Shown here: in pieces, positions 410 through 27,900 of the stretch | How positions within the stretch are numbered: the stretch's first letter is position 1 | Layout: every line of letters starts with the position of its first letter | DNA from: Yuukianura sp. NJ FZ-2021 | Taxonomy: Eukaryota | Reading direction: 5' to 3' | Assembly: GCA_046563655.1 (NCBI GenBank) | Contig: CM102285.1 | Coordinates: forward strand, 8,866,001-8,930,000 | Length of the DNA: 64,000 bases | Program-made: the position numbers and the translations under genes | Notes under the pieces: generated by a model | Database searches by the model: none | What the model saw: the letters and a program-made list of their open reading frames with translations, nothing else | Told to the model about the DNA's origin: nothing

Positions 410-850
410 TATAACGAGGAATTTGGAATAGTAAAACTTGACAATCAATCTCTAGGAATGAATGCGCCGTTAGCGCGAAAGCTAAAAGTGTAGCTATGAA
501 AGCGTTTGTTATTAGAATGAATTATAGTGAATCCCGGGAGCTTACCAGAATTACTGGAATTGATGGAAGATGAGCCGAGTTCCCATAAAGATTGCTTCCG
601 AAGCGTCATGCGTCTTGGAGATGTTGCAGGGCGAAGCCCGTTTAGATAAGAGGTAACATGAATAGAGCAAGTTATTCAACCACTTACTTGTTGGAAACTG
701 ACCCGAAAGCGTGTTGGGTCAAGCCGATAAATAGTTGTTTGGAGATAGTCCCCCCACAGTTCTTCCTTCTTCCAGAGCCGTTCAGACTTCCCCAGTTTGA
801 ACACGCCGTATCCCGTATCCATACCATGAGGCCTTGGTCTGGGGCCTGTC
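410..850 (-). repeat. Third (partial) copy of the ODC upstream leader exon plus the start of its intron
   Basis: Clear colinear similarity to 9690-10115 and 5030-5480 (for example the identical GGGTCAAGCCGATAAATAGTTG, and GTGAATCC..GAGCTTAC with a GTAAG donor on the minus strand). No ODC coding exon lies to its left inside the window. Confidence 0.85.
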
Positions 851-1515: not shown

Positions 1516-2265
1516 TATATTTTTATAAAAGTATGAACATCATCAAAATCGTTTGTGTAACCTCACTGGCACCACTAATCAACTCCAAATGCATTGTTTT
1601 AACCAAACTGCGGTATTGAGCATATTCTATTGTATGGTAAGGTTATTTGAATTACTGGACAATAAAAACGCATTTTAACACGGCCACCGTCCGTGACATT
1701 GAAATTCAAATGTTGTTCAAACACGATACCAATATGCTTGCAATGGCTAGAAGTTGCAAATTGCAACTTGCTATTCAATGGATTGTTTTTATTTCTTCGC
1801 TTATTTCTATCCACCCAAAAATACGGTTCTACATGAAAAAAAAAAGCGGAAAGCTGTCCGCAAAAGAGTAAAACTTAAAAGTGCAAGGCACTGGAGGAAT
1901 GGTTGTGAAGGCGGTTTACAGTTCCAGAAATATTACAAAGAACACAACGATGTGCATCCTAAAATTGCCTTGAAAAAGCCTAACTGGATAAATCTATCTC
2001 AAATATTGGATCCTATAGGTTCGACTTTTCTCTGCTCAATAATTCCTGCCATTAGAAACTCTCTGTATTAATCCTCCATGGAAAAACAGTTTCATACTGT
2101 TTCGTTTGCGCTTCTGTGGGACTTCAGTCTGAAACGCGGAGGTCATCGATTAAAAGGATGAATCATTAATCGGATTCGATCGAGTTACTTTCACTCTCTG
2201 TGCCATCACTCAACTCGTCCAAAGACACTTTCATTTTGTTCCTGGGGTGGGAAAGCTCATCTCAC

Positions 2266-4845
2266 TCAATCTCGGTTGTCGCTGTCGGTTGAAGTGCAGC
2301 CAACCCTTCCCGTTTTGCAAAGCGGACCATCCGCCACAAATGGATTCTCGTATTCAAGCATTCCCTTCAAGGCGCTCCTAAAGTAGCACAAGCATTTAAA
2401 TTAGGTCACGAAGTCCCAACTTTCAATGAAAGTATAGTATGACATGGCGGTGGATGTGTACATGACCATGCGGGCATCTCCACTCACCAGGCTTCTTCAG
2501 TAACGATGTAGTGCACCTTTGACAATGGAAAACCGTTGAAAGTTCCGGCCTAAAACATAATATTAAATATTTAGAGTTCGTTTTAATCGTTCGAGATTAG
2601 CCAAAATGTTGCAAAAACTCACCGTTGAAATCGAATAAGCTCCCATGTCGTGGAACATAAGCCATTCTCCGAGTTCCATTTCCGGAAGGAGTACGCGTGG
2701 GCAAACGTGATCAAAACTATCGCAAGTTGGTCCCCATACTGGAAAATGGAAGTAATCCTCATGAATCAAACAACAAATCCTACCACTGTCATCAGCACTC
2801 GTATTTTTAAATGAAGATGAACTCACTAGAGCATTGAGCAGTTTCCTGTCGGCTGTCGCTCCGGTGCTAAAACAACAAAACTAAAGTTAAATCTCCCCAC
2901 ATTCGAGAAAATCCTTATATAAAAATAAACGTTTTGTATGAATAATCTGATTACTCGAAGTGTTTGAGGGCTAAGATCAGTATGCTCGGTGAAAACACAG
3001 TTGAAACTGCCGTAGACTCCATCATTGATGTAGTACATAAAGCACTTTTCACCCTTTTCATTTTTGCACTCTCTCAGTGAGTGGATTTGAGTGAAGAGAT
3101 GAAAGGCCGAAGCAACCTGGAAAAGCATTTGATATCTGATTGATTTCAAACGAATTAATCAAAGTACAATTATGAATCTACTTACATAGAAACGTCCCGG
3201 CTCTGCTAAAAACTCCACACCGCACCCCTCCGGAAAGAAATCGTCTATAGCAGAGTTCACGATATTGGCAATCTGGTAAGTAACAAGAAAAGCTTGAGCC
3301 ATGGCTTGAAGAAAATTATGTAAACCAAGAATATTCAGTGTAACGTTTACCTCAGTTATATCTGATCCAGTGTTCCCCGGGAATCCGCCACCAATGTCAA
3401 GGACGTTCATGTTGAATCCCAACTCATAGCCCACGTCGAAGAGCCACTTTGCTGAAGCGATGGCCCTACGAAAGACTGGAGGATCCATGCATCCCGTACC
3501 GACATGAAAGCAGACTCCGACTATGTTCAGTCCAAGCTCTTGGGCAGAAGCAAGAAGCAGCGGAGCGTCATCCAGCGACACTCCAAACTTCTTTCCAAGT
3601 AGTATTAGCGCTTTATCAGCGTCGTAACGAATTCGAATGAGAAGTCTAAAGAATCAAGTAAATGGAAGTTCTACTTATCACGAAAATGATGCCCAAGAAT
3701 TTTTCAAATCACTTTAGATATGATAATGGCATGGCAAGTTTTTATTCGGTGTACCCAAAACCCACGGAGTGTAACCACCACTCTGTATCTTCATATCCAC
3801 TGAGAAGGATACGAAAATACAATGAGCATGAAACACGATTTGTAATTGTAGCCACGGTATTGTATATTGTATAACTATTAATTAGCTAGTTAGGGAAAGC
3901 AGGGTGGCAGCTAACACTGCGTGGGTACAACGAATTGAGGTTTAGTTCACTCGCACAACGAAGAGAAAGTCTCAAAAGTTTTTATGTGAATAGTCACTGA
4001 TCATTCAGTTACCTTCCAAGCTTATCTTTCTGGCTGATCGATCATTGATCAACCAGAAAGATAAGGTTTGGAAAGTAATCTTACCTGGCAGTTGGATGCA
4101 GGGCTTTGATCTTGCGCAACTCACAGACATTGTCAAAGGTCATGAGCGACACATTGAATTTCTCAGCAGCCTGAATGTGGGAAGGTAGCTTGGTGGGGTT
4201 AGCAAAGATGATGCGAGATTCATGAACCCCGAGTCCAATGACCTTGGCCATCTCACCCTAAAGGACAGAGAACAGCATTCAGCAAAAGATCCAACATCCA
4301 AGAGCAGACATATCGTGAAGCTTTAATTGGACTCGAGGTTTCACGACTTCGGTATTGGCGACACAACTGAGACGTCGTCCTGATTACATTTTCAAATGAA
4401 TTAGAGCTGTAAAAAGTAGTTATTTACGTGAGACGCTACGTCGAATCCTGTTCCTAGTGCAGCAAGCAGCCGTATTACATTTTCGTCGTTATTACACTTG
4501 ACAGCTGAAATGAAAATGCCGTTACCATTTTAGACATTAGAATTTCAATAGTAATTCGCATAAATTAAAGTAAAGTTACCGTAGAACGGTTTGATCCTTG
4601 GCATTGCTGCAACCCATTTTTGGTGCTTCCGCGCAATGTCACCGAGGTTACATAGGAAAAACGCGTCATTTGGTTTCTATAATGCAGTGATACGGTCGAG
4701 ATAATTAATTAAATCGATTTGTTACTACTATTAAAAGACCATGTAAATTAATTTTTTGTTTTACCTTTTCTGCAATAAAGTCCCGAGCTAATGATTTAAT
4801 CTTTGAGCGATTTGGAACTATATGAATTGGTTGAGGGATTTCCAT
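2266..4845 (-). CDS. ODC: Ornithine decarboxylase-like paralog, divergent active site, C-terminally truncated (11 coding exons)
   Basis: Manual splicing gives an open frame MEIPQPIHIVPNRSK...PFYAVKCN...GFDVAS...FHVGTGC...DIGGGFPG...AEPGRFYV...[17 protein letters not shown]...WGPTCDSFD...MGAYS...FNGF...GCTSTDSDNRD*. Exons are approx 4845-4765, 4676-4580, 4504-4428, 4257-4085, 3645-3351, 3272-3186, 3116-2955, 2866-2827, 2738-2623, 2549-2488, 2377-2266, all GT-AG. Confidence 0.93.
4009..4078. repeat. Inverted repeat / hairpin (about 31-bp stem) in intron 4 of the left ODC paralog
   Basis: TTACCTTCCAAGCTTATCTTTCTGGCTGATC ... GATCAACCAGAAAGATAAGGTTTGGAAAGTAA; only the right arm has a counterpart in the other ODC copy (7908-7930). 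Confidence 0.85.
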
Positions 4846-5156
4846 TATTATAAAGTTTTGATTAATACAGGCTGATCGTTGAAGCGTTCTGTAAAAAAAA
4901 ATAAGGGAACCGCTATTCCATTAGACCTTTGACCAGCATTTATCCTAAATGCATTATACGTTAACTTGTCACTTATAGCGATTTCGAACTTCAAAATTCT
5001 AAAGATGTTTTTTGAAATAAGAGCATGATTTTCGAATTGCAAAACTTGTCCATACAATTTTTAGGAATGAGTTGATACCCGATACCGCGAACGAACGCTA
5101 AAAGTTTAGCTGAAATCGTTTCGTGTGGAATGAATTAGAGTGAATCCGGAGCTTAC

Positions 5157-5620
5157 TAGAATTGATAGAAAGATGAACCGAGTTCCCGTAACGTTAATTA
5201 GTTGGTAGATTTCTTCCGAAGAAGTGCCGTGTGCTGTAGAAATATTGGAAGGCAGAGCCCGTTTAGACGAGAATTATAAAGTGAATTGAGTAAAAGTTGT
5301 TCAACCACTTATTGAAAACTGACCTGAGAGCGTACTGGGTCAAGCCGATAAATAGTTGGTTGGAAATGTTCACTAGCCGTTTTTCCTCCTTCCAGAACCG
5401 GTTATGCAGTCTTCCCCAGTTGCGTTGCAAGCCGTATACCAGTGACACCATGACGCTTTCGTGTGGGCTACCCCAGGAACAAGGCATGCACGATTTGACG
5501 TAACAAAGGAGTTTGAGCGTCAGAGACTGTTTGCCATGTCAGCTTCGTAAACAATTCCGCGTAAGTTACGGTTTGATGATGCTGATAAACGCACTGACTC
5601 ATTCGCGGAGATTCGGCCTC
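5157..5620 (-). other. Upstream leader exon of the left ODC paralog (degenerate copy of 9818-10302), containing uORF 5263-5487
   Basis: Colinear with 9818-10302 with several indels; GTAAG donor at 5156 and a polypyrimidine-CAG acceptor ending at 4889, just before the ATG exon. Confidence 0.7.
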
Positions 5621-6312
5621 TCAAAAACTTCATCCTAAACTTTGTAGTTCCAAATCTTCTAAAATCTAGATTCTAGTTGAATTTTTCAGCTGAATCAGCC
5701 AGCATTCCAGCCTCTTCAACTTTAGTACCCGCTTAATCGTTAGAAGTTAACACTCATTTTAACACGTCCAGCGTCTGGCAATGTAAAGCTCGTTATAATA
5801 TACACGTCTTTGGTCACCCTTCGAAAGTATTAAACACAAAACCTAATATGTGGGAATGGCCGGAAGTTGCTATTTGAATTATTTTTATTTCTTTGCTTGT
5901 TTCTATTCACCAATACAGTTCTACATGACAATTTAAACCGATCTGACAGGATGTTCACTGTTTGAGTTTTGCGTAAAATTAATAAAACTTAAAAGTACGA
6001 GGCACTGGAGGAATAATTTTGAACGTGGAAATTGACAGTTACAGAAATAATAGAAAGAACAGAACGAAGTGCCTCTTAAAATTGCCTTAAAAAGGCCTAC
6101 GTTGATTAATCTATCTCAAATATTGGATCCTACAGCTTCGGCTTCGTTGGTCATGTATTCAGAATTCCCGTCATTACAAAACTCTCTGTATTTAATCCTT
6201 CAAAAGTAAGATGATTTTGAAATTCTGAGTTAAATATGAATCTAGAGCCTTTAAAAATGGCTCAAAATTGACATGGAAAAGAAGTTCTTTATCCTTAAGC
6301 TTCTGTGGGGCG

Positions 6313-8691
6313 TCAGTCTGAAACGTGGAGGTCATCGATTAAGGACGAAGCATAATCCGATTCGACTGAGTCAGTTTCACTCACTGTGCCATCACTCAAC
6401 TCATGTACAAAGGCAATTTCATTTTGTTCCTGGGGTGGGCAAGCCCACCCCACTGCATCTCGGTTGCAGCCCACCCCTGCCGTTTTGCAAAGCGGAACAT
6501 CTTCCACAAATGGATTCTCGTATTCAAGCATTCCCTTCACGACGCTCCTAAGGTAGTACAAAAGCATTTAAACAAGGTCACAAGTGACAGCTTTCAATGG
6601 AAGTATTATGTGACATGGCCATGGATGTGGACATGACCAAGAGATTTCCACTCACCAGGCTTCTTCAGTAACGATGTAGTGCACCTTTGACACTGGAAAA
6701 CCGTTGAAAGTTCCAGCCTAAAAGATAATATTAAATATTTAGAGTTCGTTTTAATCGTTCGAGATTACCCAAAATGTTGCAAAAACTCACCGCTGCAATC
6801 GTATAAGCACCCATGTCGTGGAACAAGAGCCATTCCCCGAGTTCCATTTCCGGAAGGAGTACGCGTGGGCATACTTGATCCAAACCATCGCAAGTTGGTC
6901 CCCAGACTGAAAATTTGAAAGGAAATGTTATCGTAATCTTTGTAAATCAAACAACAACAACAAAAATCAGCAGCAGCAGCATTTTGTAAATGAAGATGAA
7001 CTCACTTGAGCATGGAACAGTTTCCTGTCGGATGTCGCTCCGGTACTACACCAACAAAATCAAAGTCACATCTCCCGAAATTCCACAAAATACATAAAGG
7101 TAAAGTTTTTGTGTGAATAATCTGATTACTCGAAGTGTTTGAGGGCTAACAACAGCGTGATCGTAGAGAATGCAGTTGAAACTGCCGTAGACTCCATCAT
7201 TGATGTAGTACATAAAGTTCTTTTCACCCTCTTCATTTTTACATTCTCTCATTGAGTGGATTTGAGTCAAGAGTTGGAAGGCAGAAGCAACCTGGAAAAG
7301 CATTTGATATGTTATTAATTTCAAACGAATTAATCAAAGCACAATCATGAATGAACTTACATAAAAACGTCCCGGCTCTGCTAAAAACTCCACTTCCACA
7401 CCACACCCCTCCGGAAAGAAATCGTCTATGGCAGAGTTTACGACATTGCCAATCTGGAAAGAAAAAAGAAAAGCTTGAGCAATGGCATGGCTTGAAGAAA
7501 ATTATAATAAACCAAGAATATTCACTGTAAAGTTTACCTCAGTTATATCTGATCCAGTGTTCCCCGGGAATCCGCCACCAATGTCAAGTACGTTCATGTT
7601 GAATCCAAACTCATAGCCCACGTTGAAGAGCCACTTTGCTGAAGCGATGGCTCGACGAAAGACTGGAGGATCCATGCATCCCGAACCGACATGGAAACTG
7701 ACTCCGACTATTTTCAGTCCAAGCTCTTGGGCAGCAGCAAGAAGCAGCGGAGCGTCATTCACCAACACTCCGAACTTCATTCCAAGTTGACATTGGGCTT
7801 TATCAGCGTCGCAGCGAATTCGAATGAGAAGTCTACAAAAATCAAGTATCACGAAAATGATGTTCAAGACTTTGCCAAATCATTTAGGGTTGATGATTTA
7901 ATAAGTAAGAAAGATAAGCTTGGAAAGTAATCTTACCTGGCAGTTGGATGAAGGACTTTGATCTTACGCAACTCATCGACATTGTCAAAGGTCATGACAG
8001 ATACGTTGAATTTCTCAGCAGCCCGAATGTGGGAGGCTTGCTTGGCAGGGTTAGCAAAGATGATGCGGGATTCATGAACCCCGAGTCCAATGACTTTGGC
8101 CATCTCACCCTAAAGGACAGAGGAGAAGAGCGTTCAGCAAAAGATCCAACATCCAAGAGCAGACAAATCGCGACGCTTTAATTGGACTCGAGGTTTCACG
8201 ACTGCGGTATTGGCGACACAACTGAGACCTCGTCCTGATTACATTGTCAAATGAATTAGAGCTGTAAAAAATATGTATTTACGTGAGAAGCTACGTCGAA
8301 TCCTGTTCCTAGTGCAGCGAGAAGCCGAATTACATTTTCGTCATCGTTACACTTGACAGCTGAAAAGAAGATACCGATAAATTTTTAGATACACATATTG
8401 AGGTTTAGTAAATGGAAGTTTTTACCGTAGAATGGTTTCACTCTTGGCATTGCTGTAACCCATTCATGATGCTTCCGCACGATCTCACCGAGGTTGCACA
8501 GGAAGAAGGCGTCCTCTGGTTGCTATAAGTTTAGACAACAAAGATTCAATCGTGATAATTAATTTAGTCCATTTGTTACTACAAAAAATTAAATTGACTT
8601 ATTTGTTTACCTTTTCTGCAATAAAGTCCCGAGCTAGTGATTTAATTTTGGAGCGATTTGGAACTAGACGAATTGGTTGAGTGATTCCCAT
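6313..8691 (-). CDS. ODC1: Ornithine decarboxylase, canonical (11 coding exons)
   Basis: Spliced frame [15 protein letters not shown]...PFYAVKCN...[11 protein letters not shown]...FHVGSGC...DIGGGFPG...EPGRFYV...[18 protein letters not shown]...WGPTCDGLD...MGAYT...FNGF... with an acidic tail ending DDLHVSD*. All eukaryotic ODC signature residues are present. Confidence 0.97.
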
Positions 8692-9817
8692 TGTTCTAAA
8701 GTTTTGAGTGACACGTTGAACTTTGAAGTATTCTGAAAAAAAATAAGGAAACTGTTACTCCTTTGACCTTTGACAAGCATTTGATATCCTAAATACATTA
8801 CGCCAACTTGCAGCCAGCCATTAAGCGCCTGTCGTCGTTAATAATAATTTTATTGGTTCCTTCACACAAATGATGAGTCAATGACAAGAAACATGACGCT
8901 TTTGTCTTTCAAGCACAGCGTCGTCGGCGTTTCTTGTGCCAAATATCGTTTTTGAGTATCTTTTGTAACATTAGTTATTGAGAGAGATCATTTTCTTACA
9001 TCCTAAGGTCATAAGGTCGTTGAAATGTTGACACAATGTGACCTTCCTCAGTAGCTATCTGCTTAGACAAGACAAAAGCAGATAGAAGAAACGGAACAAC
9101 GAACGCTTACGAAAATCGCTTAAAATTGACCTCAATTTCTGCAGCTGTGGCATTTTCGAAATTTGAACTTTGATTCGTTATTCCTTTGTTCTTTGAATCT
9201 TGAGTTACTGATCTCTATACTAACTTTGTGTCAGCATTTACCAACATGACACAATGAAGCACACGGTTTCGACTTTAGAACTTTAGACTTTATTCGAACA
9301 TGAATATTCAATATTCGCAAATTGCAAATTACTTTCTGCTTGGCAAGCTATTCTGCATTGCATCATGGCGGTTCGTGCGCCCCATGAGTATGATTCAAAG
9401 CACATAATGGCAGAACATGACAATAAATTGTCTAATCTTTCGCCAAGGAAAGTTTCGAGTTGCAAAAATTGTATATTGTGCAATGTTAATGGAACGTTCA
9501 TGCTTTCTGTCCCAAGCAACGATACATTGACCCTGTGACTATCTAACTGAACCAGTCGAGATTCGAGTGCGATAAACTTTACTGATTTGGCATAACCTCC
9601 GTAGCGGAAAAGTTTCTTGCCAAATTTGTCACTTACAGCGATTTCGAAATTCCAAAATCACCAGAGATTTTTTTGAAATAAGAGCATAAATTCGGAATTG
9701 CAAAACTTCACCATTCAATTTCTACAATGAATGCGACGTTACTGCGATACTGCGAATGCTAAAAGTATAGCTGAAATCGTTTCTTATAGAATGAATTAGA
9801 GTGAATCCGGAGCTTAC

Positions 9818-10615
9818 CAAAATTGATAGAAGATGAACCGAGTTCCCGTAAGGTTAATTAGTTGGTAGATTTCTTCCGAAGTGTCGTGTGGTGTGGAAAT
9901 GTTGTAGGGCAGAGCCCGTTTAGACGAGAGGTAAAATGAATTGAGCAAGTTGTTCAACCACTTGTTGGAAACTGACTCGAGAGCGTGTTGGGTCAAGCCG
10001 ATAAATAGTTGGTTGGAGATAGTCCACCCACCGTTCTTCCTCCTTCCAGAACCGTTCAGACTTCCCCAGTTTGAAGCCGTATCGAAGTGATAGCAGGACG
10101 CTTTGGTCTGGTCTTCCCCAGTAACAGGGCATGGACGATGTACCAATCTTCGCAGTAGTCAGACGTTGTCCCCATGGTCTTAGGCGTTTGACGTAACAAA
10201 GGCGCTGGAGCGCTGTTTACCATTTCAAGCTTCGTAAACAATTCTAAGCAAGCTGCTTCCAGTACCACCTTAGATGCTGACTCATTTGCGGAGATTCGAT
10301 TTCTGGAAATGACAGGAAAAATTCATGTTAAACTTTAGTTCTTTAGTGTATTGGCAAATGAGGTTCGATTATCGTTTACCTTCTTTTGTACACAGGAACA
10401 AAGTGGGTTGGTTTCTTCCATGTTGTCATTATTCTATAAAACCTGAGTAAACTGGGTTAGCAAAAATTTCCTAAAATCGTACTGAATGACCTGGCGAGAT
10501 TACAAGGATTTAGTACTTTGCCATTGTTTCGCAACTGGATTTGGTTCCTATTGTAAGAAGGGCATTGAAAGGATCCGGTTGTTCCCAGTTTTAAGCCAAA
10601 TCGTTTCAAAATCAT
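9818..10615 (-). other. Putative spliced 5' leader of ODC with multiple upstream ORFs (exons approx 10615+-10491, 10433-10380, 10302-9818)
   Basis: GT-AG introns of 57 and 77 nt, GTAAG donor at 9817, acceptor ending at 8733 just 5' of the ODC ATG. An Inr-like ATCAGT lies at 10721-10726 on the minus strand. The large exon is duplicated upstream of each ODC copy. Confidence 0.6.
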
Positions 10616-12035: not shown

Positions 12036-13770
12036 TTAGGGATTGAGTTCAGGAATGAGGGAAGTGACGAAGGTCATCACAAAAGTTCGAGCAATGTCAA
12101 GAAACGTTTGTTGTTGTTGAACTTGAGCTGGAATCAATTCATCCGCTGGAGAGGGCGCATCTCCTTCGCTGGCCACCGCTTCACCTTCCCCATCAACAAC
12201 TGGAGCTTCTTCAGGGACATCCTGAACAGGGTTGTCTATGTCTTGGTCTTCTCTCTGTTGGTTGTCGTTTGCTTGCCTAAATACGGGTTAAAGAGAGTAT
12301 ATTCATGAACAATCTGTAAAATCATCTCAATATTTTTGTAAATATCAGCAAGGGAGTACCGTTGCGGTTGAGCAGGCTGCGGAGCAACTTGCTGCTGCTG
12401 AAGCGCGTTTAAGAATCTAGGACGGCGCTGGGCACTGCAAAAATGATTCACGGATTAAGTTCATTTAAAAGACCAGTTTCTTCAAGCGCTGGAAACTTAC
12501 AACATGACCAATGCGGTAAACAGGAGTACAAGTAAAAACCGGGTAAAGTTGGAATAGAAATACACGACACTCAGGATTAGAATGAGGCGGCTTGCAGTAT
12601 AAATCCAGTCCAAAATATCTCTCTGCGGTTCATCGTCGTCTTGTGCTTGTGCCCTGGCAACTGCTGGTGGTTGGACAGGAGGATCGTCTCTAGGAGCTAC
12701 TTATGAAGAAAAATAATGATTTCTAACTTAACTGATCTCTGCATCTCACATTGTCATATTTTACAACAAAGTTAGGCAACAAAGCATGTCACTAAGCGAG
12801 TGACCTTACCGGGCTCCTGCTGAAACATAGGTTGTTGTGGTTGATTCATCGGAGGTGGAATTGGCATCTGAGGCGCTTGATTCATGTGAGGTGGCATTAA
12901 CTGCTCCGATGGGACACGAAGGCCTTGCATCATTGGAGGCATAGGGGAAGGCATCCATACTGGAGCCAAATTCCCTTGATTCCTACAAAGTCGTATCCTC
13001 GTATCGTAAGTTTTAACTTAATGGAATCGGTTTATTTTGCTAATAAAAACTAACCACTGGCTCATGAAGTTCATCATTTGTTCAACATACAGCTGGTGCA
13101 TTGCCAACATGTCTTGGGGAATTCCAGCTGGTAAAACACCCTGTGGTGGCTGGTTAATAGGTTCTCGCGGAGCATAGTCCGCATCACCAGTTCCAGCTTG
13201 GTCTTTCTTGGGCTTACTTGCGTCCTCTGACAGGCTGAAATATGTAACACAACTTATATTCAATCTAGATTAGGATTCATATCAGACGAACGTGACAAAG
13301 TACACTTACTTATTCGTATTCGTTTTCCTCAAAAATGTCGAGTTACAAGCTAAATGAAATGTGTAGCCACCGGAAACTGATACTTGACCTCCTTGGGCGA
13401 AAACTTCACGCAGAAGCTGATCATCTTCTAATAAATGTCCAGCGTAAATGATTCTCTGTTCCTTGATTTCCTGAAACAAATAAAATTAAAATTGAACTCA
13501 AAATACTTCGTCTAGTTAAACCATATCACCATATGCCACTGACAGACATACCAAATATGTCAAACGTTTGCGAAACGTGTCCGACATATGTGTAGTTGGA
13601 CTAGTGGTATTAGTGAAACATAAACTTACTGGATGCAAAGGGTATTGATCCTTGATAATTTCTTTCACATTCTTAACGCTTGAACCCAGTGGACACGAAA
13701 TCTCCAAGTCTTCACATCGGTGACTGGCCGATTTGACTCGAATCTTGACAATGTCACCGGAACCTTCCAT
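12036..13770 (-). CDS. HERPUD: Homocysteine-responsive ER-resident ubiquitin-like domain protein (Herp)
   Basis: N-terminal UBL (VKSASHRCEDLEISCPLGSSVKNVKEIIKDQYPLHP..QRIIYAGHLLED), P/Q/M-rich middle, RDILDWIYTASRLILILSVVYFYSNFTRF membrane region, C-terminal TFVMTFVTSLIPELNP* typical of HERPUD1/2. Confidence 0.92.
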
Positions 13771-14028
13771 TTTTTTATGCTGTCTCCTGTCTCGTCACTC
13801 GTCAGTTCCTACTACTTGTTGTTTAGTACACTTTCCTAGGTACTGCGTGTTAGACAAACTACAAAACCAATGAATAACTGTTTTCAAGCAAAAGACCAAA
13901 AAGTAGAAACTTGACAGTAGTGGCCGAGTCTGCTACAGCTGTTCCTAATAATTTAGTGTACTCGGATCGTCGGATCGAAGGAATTTTTATATCTAAAAAA
14001 TCCCTGATGAAACTGAAAGTTAGTAAAA

Positions 14029-16056: not shown

Positions 16057-19000
16057 ATGATAATGCTAACAGAAGAGGAAGAACAAGTGTACGATCGCTA
16101 CCAAGAACTTTGCGGCGATCTGAACCTTGATTCACAGACGAAGGAAGAGACTTGGAAAACATATTATGGTGTCAAACAAATGTATACCTTGGAGGTAAGC
16201 CAAACAAATCGATTGGGTATTACCTTTGTTTGTTTAATTGTCTTGTTTTAATAAGGTTGAGTTGTGATTGACTAGTTTTAAACTCTATGTACTTCTAGGG
16301 CGATCAGGCACATTGGCTTTGTTGTGCAGTATACGTGGCTTGTCGGCAAGCAAATGTTCCGTCAATTGGTTCTCCGACAATGCACGGAAACTATGTGAAC
16401 CTGACTAGGCTTCTTCGAACATGTCACCTAAGGTATTTTAGTTTGCGTTGAAAGTACAAAAATATTGGGCTTACCCAGATTTTTTTTTATTTACTAGCCT
16501 AGTGGATTTTTTCGACAAGAGCCGAAAGTGGGGAGACATGACCAACTTGAAGCAGGAGTACCGCAATAAGATTGAACGATTGGAAAGGAACTTCGCGGTA
16601 ACAACTGTCATATTTAAAAAGTTCGATCCAATCTTTGCTGGAATTTTCAAGGATTTCACACGACGTGATGCAGATTTGAAAGCGAATCGTAAAAAGTGAG
16701 ATTCGGAATTTGTAACATTCAAGAATGGCAGTTTAGAGGTTATAATATTTGTGACTTTGATTTACATTTATTAGACTTTCGTTTCGCTCCGCTGCAGACC
16801 TTTTCGATTATTGCTGGACTTTATTCCTTTGTGTGAAGAGCTCTTTGCGCATAAGCGATGATTTAGTGAATTCTTACCACTTGCTTTTGGCTTGCGTCGA
16901 CTTGATTTTTCATAATGTGGTTCAAGCCGGGAACAAGAACATGCTCACACAACAGTTTGCTGGTAACAGTTTACTTGTAACTTCAGTTTGTAACCTTTCA
17001 CTTCAGTAATAAGATGCATCGTCGTGTTTACACAATTCATAGTTTAACTTAGTTTTACCTTATGTTATTAGATCTCGCGGATGGAATTGGTTATGATTCT
17101 CGTGGAGATCCGAGCTGCATTATTCATTCGCTTTGCGACTTATACGATGGAATTTCTGTTGAAGCGAAGACAATCAAAGAATTTTGGCTGAAACCTAAAA
17201 TTAAGAACATGATAGAGCAGGGCGTAAGTGATTACCTTGCTCTGATATTTTTTTTTACCACAGAAATGTATTCCGTTCTCGTTTTTGATTTTCGTTGATT
17301 TTACAGGTTTTGAGAGGAGAAGCAGAAACTTTGAGCGGACTCATTGACGAAGAATCGTACGAGCACAACTATCGTCGTATGGAGAAGGAGTATGAAGAAT
17401 ATGTTTTGACAGAGGGTGACTTTGACGAGCGAATGTACTTGTCCTCCGAGCGCCAAGCTGACTTTGGAATGGATTCGGCAAATTATGAAGAGTACTTGAA
17501 GGCTCTAGAGAAACAACCAGCCATTAAAACGTTGACACCAGTCCAGGAATTGCGCCATCTCCTGCCTCAAACGCCACTCTCATGTAAACGTTTCGAGAAA
17601 GAAGATTTCTTCAATTCTCCGATTTCATCTGCCACTCAGTCTGTGAGTCGCCTTCAAGCAATTCTCTGCGGAAGAAACACTGAACCTTCAGATCAGCTCA
17701 GAGTCCTTTTGAGTTCATGTGCTCGTAATCCACTCGAAGGGATGATGGAGCGTGTCAAAGCACTCTCCGCCGTCTTCGTTGCAAAGTATACGACAAAGAA
17801 CGACAATCAACCTGGATTTCATGCCGAATTTGTCAAATTCCGTAGTCAGCTTGGACAAACACTGTTCTATCGCCTCCTCGAAAGTGTTCTTACCGTTGAG
17901 AAGAAACGAGAAAACAAATTGGATTTTTCGGTAAGGCTTCCAGTTCCAATCTACTTTTTTTGATTCACTCGAAAATTTCATTGCACTTGAAGTTAATATT
18001 TTTTTGGTTTCAGGATTTGATGGCAGATGAAAACTTTCAGACGAGTCTGTTTGCCTTATCCCTGGAAATTGTTCTTTATTCTTACAAGTCACAAAAACGC
18101 TTTCCATGGGTTCTCGATGCCTTCAACCTGGACGCTTACCATTTTTACAAAGTGATTGAACTCGTGATTCGTTCAGAAGAGAATCTCTGCCGAGATGTGG
18201 TGAAGCACTTGAGCCAAGTCGAGGAGAAAGTCCTGGAAGAATTAGTTTGGAAGGAAGATTGCCCAATATGGACCGTCATTGCCGAAAAGAACGATCCAAT
18301 TCCTTCCTGTGAAGAAGTTTTTCTTCCGTCTCAGATTGACAAGCAAGGAGAGGGCGGGGAAAGTCAACCGAAGAGATACGCGGTTATCAAAAGTAAGTTT
18401 TCCACCATAAAACCTGTTAATTGATCTCTAGCAGTGCAGCAGTACCTCATTGTATGTTTTCACTTTCAGCGCCTGCTGGTGAGAAATGCGTCCCTGTTGC
18501 AGTCGGTGGAACCAATCAGTCAACCTTGATTATCCAAGACAAAACTAGCTCACAGATCCTTGGAGTTGTTCTTCCCTCTAAACATGGAGACAAGCCGAAG
18601 AAGGGCAATTCAATTGCTCTTTTTTTCCGGAAGTTTTATCACTTGACGTTCATTCGACTTCAAGATCTCTGTAAGAGCTTGGGCGTTGAAGAGGAGCTGT
18701 TGCGAAAAATCTGGACATGCTGTCAGGAAGCCATCGTCCACCACGTTGAGGATCTCATGAAGGGTCGACACTTGGATCAGATTATAATGTGCTGTGTTTA
18801 CGTGGTTTCGAAGGTATGAAATAGAAATAGAGTCAAGTTTGTGCTTATGAGATTTTTTGTACTTACTCGTTAAATTAAACTTGTAGGTTGTTGGAGCAGA
18901 GAAGACATTTACGGATATCATGCGCTGTTACCGAATGCAACCTCAGTCCGCATCTCATGTCTACCGAAACGTAATGCTGACGAACCCAGAAGAACGTGGA

Positions 19001-21966: not shown

Positions 21967-24900
21967 ATGGGACGGCCAAACCAATACCAGGTCACTTCAG
22001 CCCAATCCTCGACGAGAGGAAGAGGCGGAAGAGGACGTGGACGAGGTCAACTATCATCATCAGTAACCACTTCTTCCAGGGTCCGTGTATCGGGAACTGG
22101 AGGAGGACGTGGTACCCGTGCTCGGACCACGGCGTCGAGAGGTAGAGGTAGAGGGAGAGCTGCCGCTTCTTCCACTGCTGCTAATGCTAATCAGCAGCAA
22201 TCGCTGAACGTTACTTCTACTTCGTTTGATGATGACGATGATGCTGACTTGCTATGTTTACAAGCACTGAGGTAACCACGGATTGTAAAATAGTAATTTA
22301 GATATTGCTTTGGATGACTGTCGTTATTTAACAAAAATATTAAATCTGTGGCAGCAACTTCGAGTTGACAACCAACGATTTTTCGAAAGCTTTTGAGGAT
22401 TTGAACAAGTCGGATCAGTTACCTGGATTCGACAAAGTTGCGGGTTAGTCGATTTCAACTTTCTTACAAGCTATAATAGTAGTCAGGACTTAAGTAATTA
22501 ATTCTGTAAATGTTTTTTGTCCAGGTGATATTTGGATATATCCCACCAACCGTCCGGTTCGAGATTACCAATTCAATATTGTCAGTACTGCTCTCTACCA
22601 TAACACAATGGTGTCTTTACCGACAGGTACTTGATACAAAGTCGTTTTTTATTCATGGAATGGATTCAACTGGGTTTTAGCGTCGAAATCTAATGAAATA
22701 CCTGAACAGGTCTTGGAAAAACGTTCATTGCTGCGGTAGTCCTGTACAACTTTCATCGATGGTATCCTAACAATTTGCTTGTTTTTATGGCTCCTACTAG
22801 GCCTCTTGGTAAGATCAGTAAATAGCCTGTGTTTTTCTTAAATTGTTTCATTTTGTTTCTAATTTCTGCTTATCTGCTTATGATTCTTTAGTCAGACAGC
22901 AATTGGACGCCTGTCATGATCTAATGGGAATTGAACCATCCAAGATGGTAGAACTGACGGGCCATATTTCTCCGAAGCGACGCGAAGAACTTTGGAAAGA
23001 AAAGAAAGGTTCGCCTCGTTTTTCTATGTGTCAAAGCAACCGATAACTGCGCTTGCATCTTGATATGCATTCGATTCATAACCGCATTTCTTTACAGTTT
23101 TCTTCTTAACTCCACAAGTGATGGTTAGTGACTTAGATCGCGGAACTTGTCTAGCCGAAGACGTTCGATGCATCGTTGTAAGTAAAGACATATCCCGAAA
23201 CTGCCCGTCGTTACTCTGTTATCAGTTTGTTAATTTAATTACTTTCTGTATTTTCTAGGTGGACGAAGCACATAAGGCGTTGGGAAATTATGCATATTCA
23301 CAAGTGATTCGGATGGTGCTAGAAAAAAACAAGTGCTTCAGAGTATTGGCTTTGAGCGCGACACCAGGAAATGACTTGACAGCAGTTCAAGAAGTAATGT
23401 TTCTTATCCAAATTGAAGTGATGGAATCGTTATTGATGTTAATTAGTTTTTCTGTGTTAACAGGTCATGGCTAATCTTCTAATTTCGAAAGTAGAGCTGA
23501 GATCTGAAACCTCTTTAGACATTCAGCCGTATACCCACAAGAAACAAATTGAAACAATTGTTGTTCATCTGGACCAAAACATCAACAGTGTTCACGATCA
23601 AGTTATGGAGGTAAGATTGTAACGGCTACATGTCTCGTCTCACTTAATAATAATCATAATTAATAATCTTACTTATTGACTTATTACGACCTATACTAAT
23701 AGGTCGTACTTGGCATTTAATGATCTTCTGTGTCTTTGTTTTCTAATCAGATCTTTCAGCATTTTACCGGGAAACTGATGAAACAAAACGCGTTGGCGGG
23801 AGGTGGTGCATCAACTTTTACGCGCTTCCAGGTATTTTGGTTGTCACTATTGAGTAATGGCTAACCACTATAACGTTAGACAGTTTCACCCTCAAGGAGG
23901 TAAGGAGGATTCATTTTTTATTAGTAATATCATTTTTATTTTCAGCTGTTGAAAGCCAGAGACGCCTACCATCAGAGACAAAAGTCCGGAATGCCAAACT
24001 ACCTAAAGGGCCTCATTGAACTGGACTTTGCAATATGTATCTCTCTGGCCTACGCAATTGACCTCCTACAAATTCATGGCCTCCGATCCTTTTACTCGCA
24101 TTTACATTGTAAGTACACATTATTAAGCTACCTTCTTTTTAACAATATTGCCTGTGATATTGAAATAGGTATCAGCTCAATTTACTCTATTTTTCAGCCG
24201 TTTTGAACAAAGAAAAAGGTTCGGCAGCAGTTGCCGTCCAACTCCGTAAGACGAATTTAGAAAATCTTTTAGATGAAGTGCGACAAAAACTTAACATATC
24301 GAATGCCAGCTCATTTTTTGATCTGGATTCTTCCGGCCTGATGACATCGGTGAGCAATAAGTAAAAGTGTGACTCTGAACGTAAATCTAATCATGTGACA
24401 ATATTTTAGTTTTCTCAACCTTCGTCGGATGAGACCGATGCGGATCCTACAAATCCCGAGGACTATTTGCTGAGCCACCCCAAAATGCGGATTTTGAAAG
24501 ACCTCGTGCAGAGCCACTTCAACTCACATCAATCTGGAACACGGATTATGATTTTCAGCGAGGTAGCGAATGTTTTACAGTTTTATTTCTTTATTTACCC
24601 ACAACTTTTAGTACATTTTGTTTTGATGTTTAGTACCGGAATAGCGTGCAAGAAATAGGAAATATGCTGAATTCTCTGCGACCCGTGGTCAAGCCGATGA
24701 TTTTTTTAGGGCAAGGGAAAGGCGCTGGAGTTGGTGGGCGAGGTCTCCGCCAAAAGGAGCAAGTACAAGTTGTGCAGTCATTTAAGAATGGAGATCTGAA
24801 TGTTCTCATTTCTACTTGTGTTGGCGAGGAAGGTCTGGACATTGGCGAAGTGGATTTAATAATTTGCTACGATGCAAGCAGCAGCCCAACGCGATTGGTG

Positions 24901-27900
24901 CAAAGAATGGGACGAACTGGACGTCAACGGGAAGGAAAGACTATTTTTCTGTTAACTTCTGGAAGGGAGTGGCGGGTAAGATTTTTTGATCCAGAAATAC
25001 CGTTTCAAGTTCGATATTCTTTGACTTTGGAGTTTTTTTTTCAGTTGTACCACAACAGTGTTCAGCAGCAACAAACTATAAGTAAAGGCATAACCGATAC
25101 CAGTATGCTTGAACAGTTTCTGTATAAAGCGTCGCCAAGAATGGTTCCCCCAGGTAAGTTGTTGAAAAAAGTAATCATATGAGTCTTTGTGTATGGTCCC
25201 TTTTATCAATTTTATATAAGAATTTAATTTATGTTTTCAGGAGTTAATCCACGGTGCTTCAAAATGAGTATTCTTTCGTCTACAGACCAAAAGCGTGAAG
25301 CCGATGAAGAAAGTGATTCGGAAGTCGACAGTATAGGTTAGTCTTCGCGAACTTGCGATCTTTGTGACAAGCATCCAGTTGTTCATTGAGGAATTCATCA
25401 ATTTTGTTTAACTTTTACACCCCCTAGATCCTGAGGATAACTCCGACGAAGAAAATGAACGACAATCAAGTTCCATTGGAAAGCGCAAGAAACCGCCGCG
25501 AACGAAAACTGCGTCGACGAGTTCCAAAAATTCGACGACTTCCACTGCCAAAGCCAAGAATAAGAAAAGCAAGAGTGATTCCGCCTTGACAAAGAAAAAT
25601 GGCAAAAGCAACGCCAAAGTACAAAAGAAGCGAGCCACTAAATCGGATTCCATTGGAACGGAAAGTCAACAAGCCGCGTCAACGACTAATCTGTCAATGG
25701 ACGAGCACCTCAGCACCAATGGCGGTGAAGAAGTAGGAATGGACGCGTGTACCTTTGACGATGAAAATCCATTAGACACATCTTTCAACCTAATGCTTGA
25801 ATCGGAGGCTGTAAACGACAACGTGAGGCATGGACCTGACCAGGATTATCAAGCAAATCTCAAGAGAGTGTTTGGAATTAAGGATTTGGAAGCTGGGAAC
25901 CAGACAAAGTGCGTCTTTGTCCCAAAATTGGCGTTGCCATGTGAAGAAATACCGGAACTCCCGCCCCTGGAGGAGTTGGATAACATCTTCAGTGACGTAA
26001 GTGTGGAACGGCTTCGGGAAAAGTTGAACTCCATTTACGTTTTTGGTCCAAACTCTGATCGCTGTGACTGTGGGAAGCTGGTTGTCGATTCTGACGAAGA
26101 GGAAAATAATTTCGTTGAGAAGCCAAACGAACCAAACATGGACATCGAGTTGTATAATGATTTTGACAAACCGAAGCCGCAACTCGCAGTGGATGAGACT
26201 GTTCCAGTTCCAGTTCCTCTTCAAGCATCCATCGAACCTGCTCAGTCTCCGCAACTTTCTCAAAAGGAAAAGGAAGAACTGGACGCGTTTAATCTGGCTT
26301 TTGAAGCAGCTTTTGACGAGGAAAATGAGGAACTGGATTTCTTTCCAGCACCACCTACTGAATTGGAAACTGAAGAACGAAGTCCTATTTTTAAGAGAAG
26401 ATCACTCCCATCCTCTACTCCCACATTGTGCAATTTTGACGATTTGGAAACAAACGCAAGTGTTGTTTCGAAGTCCCAGAATTTTATGTCACCGAAGACA
26501 CAAAACCAGCGATCCTCTCCCAACTCCAGCCCATGTTCTTCTCCAGAGATTTATCCTGCTTCTCCACTTTCCCCCAAGAAGCTGCGACGCGCCGCACCTG
26601 GAAAACTCATACGTAAACCAGCCAACACTTTTCCAGTTGCAAGCTCCAGCACGGAAATGCCAACTCGAGTGCCTCCCACCAGAAAAGAGTTGTTTCCATT
26701 GGTGCCGGCCGCAACAAAACCCGTTTCAACATCACCGCCGTCCTCTGATGCAACGTACTACGAATCAGGCCAATCACAAGATGAAGATCAGATGGAGCTA
26801 AGTCCAATAATTACAAAAACCGTAACTCCTGCTTCACACCCTCCCACCAAAAAATTCATTTTCAAAGACAAAACTTTACCCGAGAGGGAAACTCCTGCTG
26901 AGCCAAGTACAAACAATTTGACGGAGCAGAGCAAAACTCATGATACGGAGATGGTCGGAACGAATTCACCAGGTTCCCATTCCGGGTCGCAAATTAATTA
27001 TTTTTCTCCAGATTGCTTCGACTCAACCAACGTCTCTGCAAATGGAAGTTCAAGAAGAGTATTTTCATTTCGGAAACCCACGGAAGTGCGCTCCACTCCT
27101 GCGGTCCGATTCGAAGAATTGTTACGCGGCCCCATCCTGTTGTCGCAAAATGACGCTACTCCAACATCACAACCCGAGTCTTCGAATATGCCTCAGCAGT
27201 CCCTCAGTAATAGGACATCGCTTTTTTCTCCGGGAATGGTGGAAATGTCCGAGCCAAGCGCTATATGCAAACTAACATTGCCATCATCTACGTTAACAAA
27301 CAAATGCAAAACGCCAACAAGGAATGTTGCGACAAATCAACCTCAACGTTGGTTCAATACCTCACTCAACGTCCAAACAAGTAAACCTTCACAGCCAATT
27401 GGGAGATCCGTCGCAAATGAAGCCGATGAAGACGGATTTAACTCCTCAGACTCGGATGATGTGTTTTTTATTCCGAGGAACAGTGGGACCCAGTCTACTG
27501 CTGCAGCAGCTTCGATGGCGCGCACACCGCCGTCAGTGGAATGCATAACTCCAGAAATGAAAAGCAGCACTCCGCTGAGAAAACCTAGCAGAAGACGAAA
27601 TGGGCAACGCGGGCGCAGGCGAATAGGAAGTGACTTTGTGTTGAATGAGGCTGAAGTCGAAGGAGATACTGGTTCCGATGACTCCGAAGAAATGGGCGAC
27701 ACGGATGCTTATGACACGTCCTTTGTTGCCGTAGAAGAGAGCCCACCACTTGTCACTGAGACGTATGTACTCAACAGTTCGACTTAGGTTTAAAAAAATG
27801 CTAAAAAACGAAACATTTAATAAAATTATCTTGAATGACTTTGTGTTTCAGGCAACAAGTCCGATACATTCAATCAACCAAGGTAACTCCGACCAGATTA

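Follow-up and report, generated by a model that had tools for sequence, protein, structure and literature searches.

The window analyzed here, a 64,000-nucleotide stretch of the genome of the springtail Yuukianura sp. NJ FZ-2021, contains two minus-strand ornithine decarboxylase (ODC) genes, copy B at about 1765-5620 and copy A at about 5860-10300. A third intact copy, C, lies beside them and extends beyond the window's left edge, making the array a tandem triplet. The sequence-only reading of this DNA had described two same-strand units sharing a 3' flank and an 11-exon structure, the left one (B) with intact frame and splice sites, and these descriptions hold: A and B are 83–85% identical across their coding blocks, each has 11 coding exons, an open frame and GT..AG boundaries at 10/10 coding introns, and 3' flanks with AATAAA are common to the copies. 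The duplication it proposed is real, but a two-copy model had to be dropped because copy C, which it missed, exists. With dS among the copies of 0.21–0.25 (about 0.21 for A and B), and with independent insertions in the copies, a haplotype or assembly artefact is ruled out. The gene models and their flanks, all on the minus strand, are as follows.

6313..8691, minus strand: coding region of copy A in 11 exons, product of 476 aa, canonical ODC
8691-8611, 8522-8426, 8359-8283, 8109-7937, 7832-7538, 7453-7361, minus strand: A exons 1-6
7291-7130, 7045-7006, 6906-6791, 6717-6656, 6547-6313, minus strand: A exons 7-11
9817-8733, minus strand: A leader intron, 1085 nt
9818..10300, minus strand: putative A promoter and first leader exon, TATA-like box at 10007, initiator at 9975
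about 9973-9818, minus strand: putative A first leader exon, AUG-free
2266..4845, minus strand: coding region of copy B in 11 exons, product of 433 aa, derived ODC paralog
4845-4765, 4676-4580, 4504-4428, 4257-4085, 3645-3351, 3272-3186, minus strand: B exons 1-6
3116-2955, 2866-2827, 2738-2623, 2549-2488, 2377-2266, minus strand: B exons 7-11
4889..5156, minus strand: B leader intron, 268 nt
5157..5620, minus strand: putative B promoter and first leader exon, TATA-like box at 5354, initiator at 5322
about 5320-5157, minus strand: putative B first leader exon, retained, AUG-free
1765..2078, minus strand: 3' flank of B with AATAAA at 1793, homologous counterparts in A (5864-6202, AATAAA at 5889) and in C
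546..850, minus strand: C core promoter and first leader exon, TATA-like box at 733, initiator at 701
G000:C3:8865723-8861036 (L005), minus strand, left of the window: the 11 coding exons of copy C, 419 aa, intact, translation stop-free

All three proteins carry the PF02784 and PF00278 domains and nest among eukaryotic ODCs, forming one clade (support 100/100) within a springtail clade (100/99), and springtail ODCs are their closest named relatives. B and C together form a clade with a remodelled pocket, and alternative topologies are poorer (lnL -4167 versus -4115). Copy A, on a terminal branch of length 0.011, has a canonical specificity helix as well as the conserved tail motif and acidic tail. 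No orthologs of B or C occur among 222 proteins or among 80 metagenome loci (80 kept of 194 confirmed); their nearest look-alikes, P0191 from the mite clade and P0108 from a locust, are unrelated.

Promoters, leaders and C-terminal tails

A TATA-like box and a TCAGT initiator lie 31 nt apart in A, B and C. Transcription probably starts near the initiator, at about 9973 in A, 5320 in B and 699 in C, as the 5' ends of relatives' transcript contigs suggest; in the closest relative (L018) the contig opens some 13 nt past the initiator position. Further upstream, motifs that we take to be AP-1-, FOX- and CRE-like stand at 10284-10189 in A and, the same set, at 5601-5496 in B. They are missing from C, where the upstream promoter has been replaced. 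The C leader has gained three upstream AUGs, one of which overlaps the start out of frame; a new donor near +12 in C may let splicing bypass them. Introns 1 and 3 of C contain large insertions, one with 18-bp perfect inverted ends.

The B leader intron is 817 nt shorter than that of A, close to the 815 bp previously estimated. Loss of the first leader exons from B, also proposed, is not borne out: B retains its first leader exon, and the DNA that it lacks (10310-10615 in A) lies upstream of the TATA-like box and initiator. GT/AG-like sites can be read as leader exons in that segment, but relatives' contigs start near the initiator; a minor upstream start there is possible. Nor did B lose control by an upstream open reading frame (uORF), since the putative leaders of both A and B contain no AUG and hence no uORF. 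An mRNA of a uCC-regulated ODC homolog is defined by a conserved upstream coding region ending PPW..stop, and a conserved uORF of this PPW type is present in 0 of 8 springtail-clade ODC leaders versus 40 of 72 other leaders. Neither of the two long open reading frames tested from the leader region matches Pfam.

The acidic tail of B, by contrast, is indeed lost.

2123..2300, minus strand: B tail, with an in-frame insertion of 18 nt, a premature TGA (2268-2266) and, beyond it, degraded remains of the former tail

In the alignment the in-frame insertion is followed by a nonsense codon, and a frameshift as the cause was rejected. The former tail DNA of B has a further stop and small indels, whereas the coding part has gathered none. 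The conserved tail is retained in L018, L035 and P0121. Because C lost its tail through a 65-nt frameshifting deletion and B by nonsense, the two losses are, as the alignments read, independent. The suggestion that B had shed its feedback controls is thus at most half supported: the tail, a candidate degron, is gone twice, but there was no uORF to lose. Tail-dependent turnover of the kind described for vertebrate ODC would have a weaker hold on B and C.

The substrate pocket and selection on the derived copies

Residue positions follow human ODC numbering, and the 20 catalytically critical residues (PMC5518511) are K69, D88, E94, R154, K169, G171, H197, S200, G235-237, E274, R277, D332, C360, D361, D364, G387, Y389 and F397. 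Copy A matches at 20/20, B at 18/20 (S200T, D332E) and C at 19/20 (D332E). The pocket shared by B and C has lost C164 and carries Y331T, D332E and L363F/V; the changed elements of B are listed here.

3586..3630, minus strand: loop before K169 (human 157-168, approximate span), 157Y, 163L, 164I, 165L, 168K
2970..3005, minus strand: specificity helix (human 327-334, approximate span), L330F, Y331T, D332E, A334T
2623..2738, minus strand: exon 9, C360 loop, G362S and L363F, with C360, D361 and D364 retained
2623..2738, minus strand: exon 9, strand after Y389, T390S, A392S, A393T

Cys164 is found in 96% of 212 homologs, Glu332 in 4/212, and the B/C states I/T164, T200, F323, T331 and V363 in none of them. 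The ornithine-type specificity helix, ending Tyr/Phe-Asp-His, is missing from both derived copies, which have Thr-Glu-His instead.

The 11 columns of the helix and C360 loop were defined from papers, and the pocket partition was drawn after the substitutions had been seen. Within these columns 5/11 sites changed in B versus 50/399 elsewhere (p=0.009), and 5/11 in C versus 26/399 (p=0.0006). When the 158-168 loop, which we count as a pocket element, is added, 9/22 sites are changed in each copy (p=9e-4 for B, 6e-6 for C), while the same 22 columns show 0, 0, 1 and 0 changes in the control lineages. Moreover, B and C carry different replacements at the same pocket sites, and four of the five positions at which A, B and C all differ fall within the 22 columns (p=3e-5). 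The active-site substitutions first remarked on in B are therefore clustered beyond chance, and the claim of a changed substrate pocket is supported by these statistics and by comparison with relatives.

Both derived copies are under purifying selection. Omega is 0.32 on the derived branches versus 0.087 in the background and is below 1 (p=7e-10), as it is on the B branch alone (0.375, p=2e-4) and the C branch alone (0.155, p=5e-7), so that a neutrally drifting young pseudogene, named beforehand as an outcome that would overturn the proposal, is rejected. The critical-20 codons have an omega of 0.16, below 1 (p=7e-4), and evolve faster than background (p=0.003); 90 other conserved columns behave as the background does (0.055, p=0.23), and the remaining protein is relaxed (0.36 versus 0.12). 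For non-critical pocket codons omega is 1.94 versus 0.034 in the background, above 1 at a marginal p=0.03. The branch-site dN/dS check that had been recommended was negative for B, C and their stem together (2dL 0.16, p=0.69) and for B alone (2dL 0), and positive for the stem alone (2dL 4.5, p=0.03, one of four tests). Since the partition is post hoc, the loop an assumed element and the omega of 1.9 marginal, the pocket may have been locally relaxed.

Possible activities of the derived copies

These observations suggest a history in which tandem triplication of a springtail ODC gene followed divergence from the closest relatives found. Copy A would have remained a putrescine-making ODC, while a second copy kept its PLP-binding and catalytic machinery and rebuilt the specificity helix, the C360 loop and the loop before K169. 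B and C would both descend from this rebuilt copy, with further divergence between them at the same pocket positions and separate losses of their conserved C-terminal tails. On balance, we favor the view that both are active PLP decarboxylases, dimeric and shifted in substrate. The likeliest substrate is a basic amino acid that exceeds ornithine in size, because the amine-binding acids E332 and D361 are kept and the Y331 wall is removed.

Our single best guess at that substrate is arginine, given a partial convergence on chlorovirus arginine decarboxylase, of which Glu332 is a feature, though insufficient alone. Conversion of arginine to agmatine is a tentative proposal; another, hydrophobic or modified amino acid seems rather unlikely as the substrate, and lysine very doubtful. 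The two copies may by now have different substrates. We rate low the possibility that an ODC became a genuine animal arginine decarboxylase in B, C or both, through roughly a dozen pocket changes; if it did, this enzyme and bacterial-type agmatine deiminases would form an agmatine route outside the usual ODC control, a gene-level case of animal agmatine synthesis. An earlier mammalian candidate, AZIN2, is reportedly not an arginine decarboxylase. As context, the genome has four intronless agmatine-deiminase-family genes, which score below the aguA cut-off and three of which appear to have signal peptides, and it yields no aguB match above that family's cut-off. Agmatine deiminase is also present in Folsomia candida, whose ODC (P0006) has a canonical helix. 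A search for agmatinase gave four arginase-family loci, none accepted: the two that were scored fall below the cut-offs, one closest to formimidoylglutamase and one to arginase, and the other two are arginase-like by eye.

Alternatively, B and C may still decarboxylate ornithine, at a lower rate but with greater stability or a different expression, a case of dosage or subfunction, and their pocket changes may be tolerated rather than adaptive, in which case the array would be an ordinary tandem duplication of a relaxed ODC. We consider this unlikely, although human ODC D332E alone has near-normal ornithine kinetics, R165E is wild-type-like and Y331S only lowers kcat, about five-fold, to about 18% (PMC4139326), and although the mostly null branch-site tests, the relaxation of the remaining protein, the twofold tail loss and the multiple ODC copies of several insects (PMC12419136) would all fit. 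Against it stand the far denser changes in the pocket, their divergence between B and C at shared sites, and the residue states absent from all 212 homologs.

It is quite unlikely that B and C serve as regulators with little or no catalytic activity, either antizyme inhibitors or heterodimer partners tuning copy A. Positions 165, 331 and 332, all changed in B/C, are three of the five AZIN1-versus-ODC interface positions (PMC4139326); the genome yielded one antizyme locus (G000:C8, near 3,355,300), and the antizyme contact at position 137 has gone from Asp to Cys. However, the antizyme contact Q116 is lost, and A, B and C alike have K at 125 and R at 140, so that these two positions show no gain. 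Both also keep K69, D88, H197, E274, C360 and D361, along with R277 and Y389, where AZIN1-type changes cripple activity, and in C no critical residue besides D332E is altered. Between the two options of the sequence-only reading, a new amine-producing enzyme and an antizyme inhibitor, the latter is thus the weaker, since R277 and Y389 are changed in human AZIN1 and kept here. For the defensive metabolite also suggested there, the analysis turned up no pointer. Finally, it is likewise quite unlikely that B, C or both have fallen silent or died recently, leaving a historical selection signal. In favor of this, both are truncated, C has its intron insertions, replaced upstream promoter and new upstream AUGs, and constraint could be imitated by gene conversion from A, since introns of A and B diverge unevenly (p=0.0008). 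Against it, the reading frames stay open through 433 codons in B and 419 in C, the splice sites of B and the C model are sound, core promoter and AATAAA are retained, the B tail DNA took stops and indels that the coding part did not, and each terminal branch has an omega below 1.

Comparison with known systems

Function has switched several times among ODC paralogs, and the cases considered here, namely the AZINs, mouse leucine decarboxylase and chlorovirus arginine decarboxylase, all lie far from their parent. Plant lysine/ornithine decarboxylase is an ODC-derived broadening of substrate, marked by another residue in place of the His that follows the helix acid; H333, in contrast, is retained in both derived copies. 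Human ODC1 (PDB 2on3/1d7k) shares its fold family and PLP/catalytic residues with the array and is matched by A at every critical site, whereas B and C are tail-less and altered in the specificity helix, C360 loop and pre-K169 loop.

For a shifted substrate, the chlorovirus PBCV-1 arginine decarboxylase A207R (PDB 2nv9/2nva) is instructive. It is ODC-derived, as B and C are, and has Glu332, no Cys at 164 or 328, and Val363; C has all four features and B the first two. The origins are independent, however, and residues 331-333 are Phe-Glu-Lys in A207R but Thr-Glu-His in B and C. Substrate specificity depends on helix position, and the A207R helix lies about 2 A further from PLP, with residue 332 at about 12 A in the viral enzyme and 10 A in ODC (PMC11792860). 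Vertebrate AZIN1 and AZIN2 are ODC paralogs with changes at 165, 331 and 332, as in B/C (PMC4139326), but AZIN1 changed R277 and Y389 as well, and its higher antizyme affinity is set by positions 125/140 (K125, K140), where B and C have no copy-specific gain.

By analogy, the best functional precedent for B and C is mouse Gm853/ODCrp, an animal ODC paralog with impaired antizyme-binding and PEST motifs that acts on leucine and not on Orn, Lys or Arg (PMC5518511). Gm853 retains all critical residues yet uses another substrate, so substrate is not readable from these residues. It is 41% identical to ODC, in contrast to the dS of about 0.21 between A and B, and its substrate is neutral, whereas two acids remain at the pocket floor of B and C. 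In the present array an ancestor-like copy stands beside two young derivatives at about 85% DNA identity, which narrows the putative switch to some 15 residues and makes it testable by swaps.

Three tandem ornithine decarboxylase genes

Self-comparison of the window recovers two minus-strand ornithine decarboxylase (ODC) units, with coding blocks 83–85% identical, and a third match, at 401–842, to the leader block of both alike. A search of the springtail's own genome places a third ODC gene directly left of the window; the sequence-only reading, a two-copy duplication, was thus right about both units and lacked the copy beside them. Two domain searches, run exon by exon, give a lower bound of at least three ODC-domain genes in the genome, all of them the copies listed here. 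In gene models assembled from coordinates, all three frames are open.

ODC copies (A canonical) and neighbouring genes
8691–6313, minus strand: copy A, 476 aa, 11 coding exons, open frame
4845–2266, minus strand: copy B, 433 aa, 11 coding exons, open frame
G000:C3:8865723-8861036 (own genome): copy C, 419 aa, 11 coding exons, open frame
12039–13800, minus strand: HERPUD-like gene, by eye
17289–18816, plus strand: retinoblastoma-family gene
24634–25179, plus strand: helicase
31635–32090, minus strand: DUF726 gene
40594–40956, minus strand: carboxylesterase

None of the five neighbours named within the window suggests an amine pathway cluster. Intron 3 of C carries a MITE-like insertion of ~870 bp with 18-bp perfect terminal inverted repeats (L005:6598-7466), and intron 1 a separate insertion of ~1.27 kb.

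The best named single-domain matches are ODCs of the springtails Allacma, Folsomia and Orchesella, and the nearest relative is L018, a transcript contig from a metagenome, sharing 80% identity with A, 77% with C and 71% with B. A tree built from 35 chosen proteins nests all three copies among springtails as one clade (support 100/100), in which B and C pair together (100/99); branch lengths are 0.011 for A, 0.062 for the B+C stem, 0.13 for B and 0.05 for C. dS between A and B is 0.21. An insertion in intron 4 is common to B and C, whose exon 4 is also nearly identical; A and B are close in introns 5, 6 and 9. A–B intron divergence is heterogeneous (7 of 10 introns compared, p=0.0008; introns 1, 3 and 4, which carry large insertions, were omitted), and the history of the copies is mosaic. 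That the close A–B tracts end short of the changed pocket codons is suggestive only.

Leaders and C-terminal tails

The first leader exons, reported as lost from B, are probably not missing: a first exon with GT donor and an acceptor ahead of the ATG is retained in A, B and C, as is a TATA-like box 31 nt upstream of a TCAGT initiator, both putative promoter motifs. The motifs further upstream in A also occur in B and are absent from C. The L018 contig starts ~13 nt downstream of the initiator; a leader motif shared among springtails lies ~55 nt downstream of it, five more contigs starting ~30–50 nt before this motif and another (L019) ~90 nt ahead of it. Because relatives' contigs start near the initiator, the stretch read as lost exons most likely lies upstream of the transcript. 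The shorter leader intron of B is confirmed, at 817 nt less than in A.

Nor was there uORF control for B to shed. The leaders of A and B have no AUG. The conserved PPW uORF, frequent in other animals, is lacking from springtail ODC leaders: of 8 in the springtail clade, one of them just 87 nt, none has a PPW-type upstream coding region as defined in the accessible text of PMC2811004, versus 40 of 72 others. C has gained three upstream AUGs. A 4-nt insertion in C also makes a consensus splice donor ~12 nt past the initiator (window 686–700), which, if used, would skip all three. Close to their 5' ends, 7/7 long-enough springtail ODC leaders (L017–L023) and 0/72 others carry a short motif, which is degenerate in A (window about 9920–9905), B and C.

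A's conserved tail motif and acidic tail recur in L018, a further locus (L035) and a homolog protein (P0121), so the tail in A is ancestral. As claimed, B lacks the acidic tail: after an in-frame insertion of 18 nt, a nonsense codon ends the protein within the motif, and another stop codon and indels follow downstream. C lost its tail through a 65-nt frameshifting deletion; the two losses are independent events. By analogy with human ODC, in the accessible portion of PMC4595762, the springtail tail would be a degron. The last 29 nt of A's frame, stop codon included (6341–6313), are nearly unchanged in B (2152–2124) and C, where they are noncoding, as an RNA element, through conversion or by chance.

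Pocket substitutions and constraint

Human residue numbers were assigned by motif from the alignment, and the 158–168 loop is taken by us to be part of the pocket. Changes found in both B and C are Q116L, 165L, 168K, S195C, Y331T, D332E and A393T, along with loss of C164 (replaced by Ile and Thr in the two copies); the replacements differ between them at 163, 164, 330, 363 and 392; S200T, A334T, G362S and T390S are confined to B, and Y323F and C328S to C. Among 212 homologs (380–620 aa, arthropod-heavy, exact duplicates alone removed), I/T164, T200, F323, T331 and V363 each occur in none, and E332 in four. Within the specificity helix and C360 loop, as named in the accessible text of PMC11792860 and PMC7857480, 5/11 sites changed in B (50/399 elsewhere) and 5/11 in C (26/399 elsewhere), an enrichment that supports the proposed change of B's substrate pocket. 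With the 158–168 loop included, each has 9/22, and four control lineages have 0, 0, 1 and 0 of 22. Of 20 critical residues (list from the accessible part of PMC5518511), B keeps 18 and C 19.

Cys89→Val and Lys92→His occur in all three copies, canonical A included (window 8283–8295 and equivalents); near-invariant position 89 is Val in 1/206 homologs, and position 92 His in 0/209. Glu332 is also found in unrelated arthropod ODC homologs: a mite-clade protein on a long branch, whose helix end resembles that of B (P0191), a locust paralog with Lys168 (P0108), and an insect clade (L054, L055, L069) whose helix presumably resembles that of AZIN1.

Codon models made for this analysis (410 codons, five sequences) give an omega of 0.32 on the derived branches (B, C and their stem) versus 0.087 elsewhere, below 1 at p=7e-10 and also on each terminal branch, which rules out a young neutral pseudogene. 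Recent silence of B and/or C, more plausible for C, is improbable. Derived-branch omega is 0.16 at critical sites, 0.055 at other conserved columns and 0.36 at the rest; at non-critical pocket sites, a post hoc partition, it is 1.94 (above 1 at p=0.03). The branch-site test that had been proposed responds for the stem alone (p=0.03) and fails for B+C+stem (p=0.69) and for B alone, results that count against an adaptive pocket. The pocket reflects either adaptive change or local release from constraint.

Candidate functions and known systems

The likeliest reading of these sequences, slightly more probable than not, is that B and C are active as decarboxylases and prefer a new substrate. A longer basic substrate would fit because both pocket-floor acids are kept and the Tyr331 wall is gone. 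Two precedents limit this reading, each as far as the accessible text goes: D332E alone leaves ornithine activity of human ODC unharmed (PMC4139326), and mouse Gm853 uses leucine though its critical residues are kept (PMC6313458, PMC7671201, PMC5518511). An attenuated, more stable ODC is unlikely. Less probable again is an antizyme inhibitor or heterodimer regulator: AZIN1-like changes stand at positions 165, 331 and 332, but B and C retain R277 and Y389, and positions 125/140 (accessible text of PMC3084279) are the same in all three copies.

For the new-preference reading, arginine is overall a tentative candidate substrate. Four intronless agmatine-deiminase family genes (PF04371; G000:C3:91547-110743, L150–L153) lie among animal genes, their named top matches mostly actinobacterial, plus Folsomia candida, and are likely an old horizontal transfer; three of the four apparently carry signal peptides. 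The arginine/agmatine reading is limited by Folsomia, which has the family together with a canonical ODC (P0006), and aguB has no match in the genome above its cut-off. An intronless arginase-family gene (L142, G000:C4:681568-685410), closest to formimidoylglutamase, adjoins a long intronless frame resembling a glycoside hydrolase by eye; both are possible horizontal transfers.

Functional switching among ODC paralogs is already known. A drought proteomics study reportedly touches on Collembola and ornithine decarboxylase. Our literature search, with most subscription papers outside its reach, found no account of springtail ODC paralogs and no paper joining agmatine deiminase with springtails. 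The accessible text of an insect survey describes multiple ODC copies in several insects and does not mention a springtail triplet (PMC12419136). The springtail copies are a real, young candidate for neofunctionalisation. The chlorovirus arginine decarboxylase has Glu332 and Val363 and lacks Cys164 and Cys328; C matches it at all four positions and B at two.
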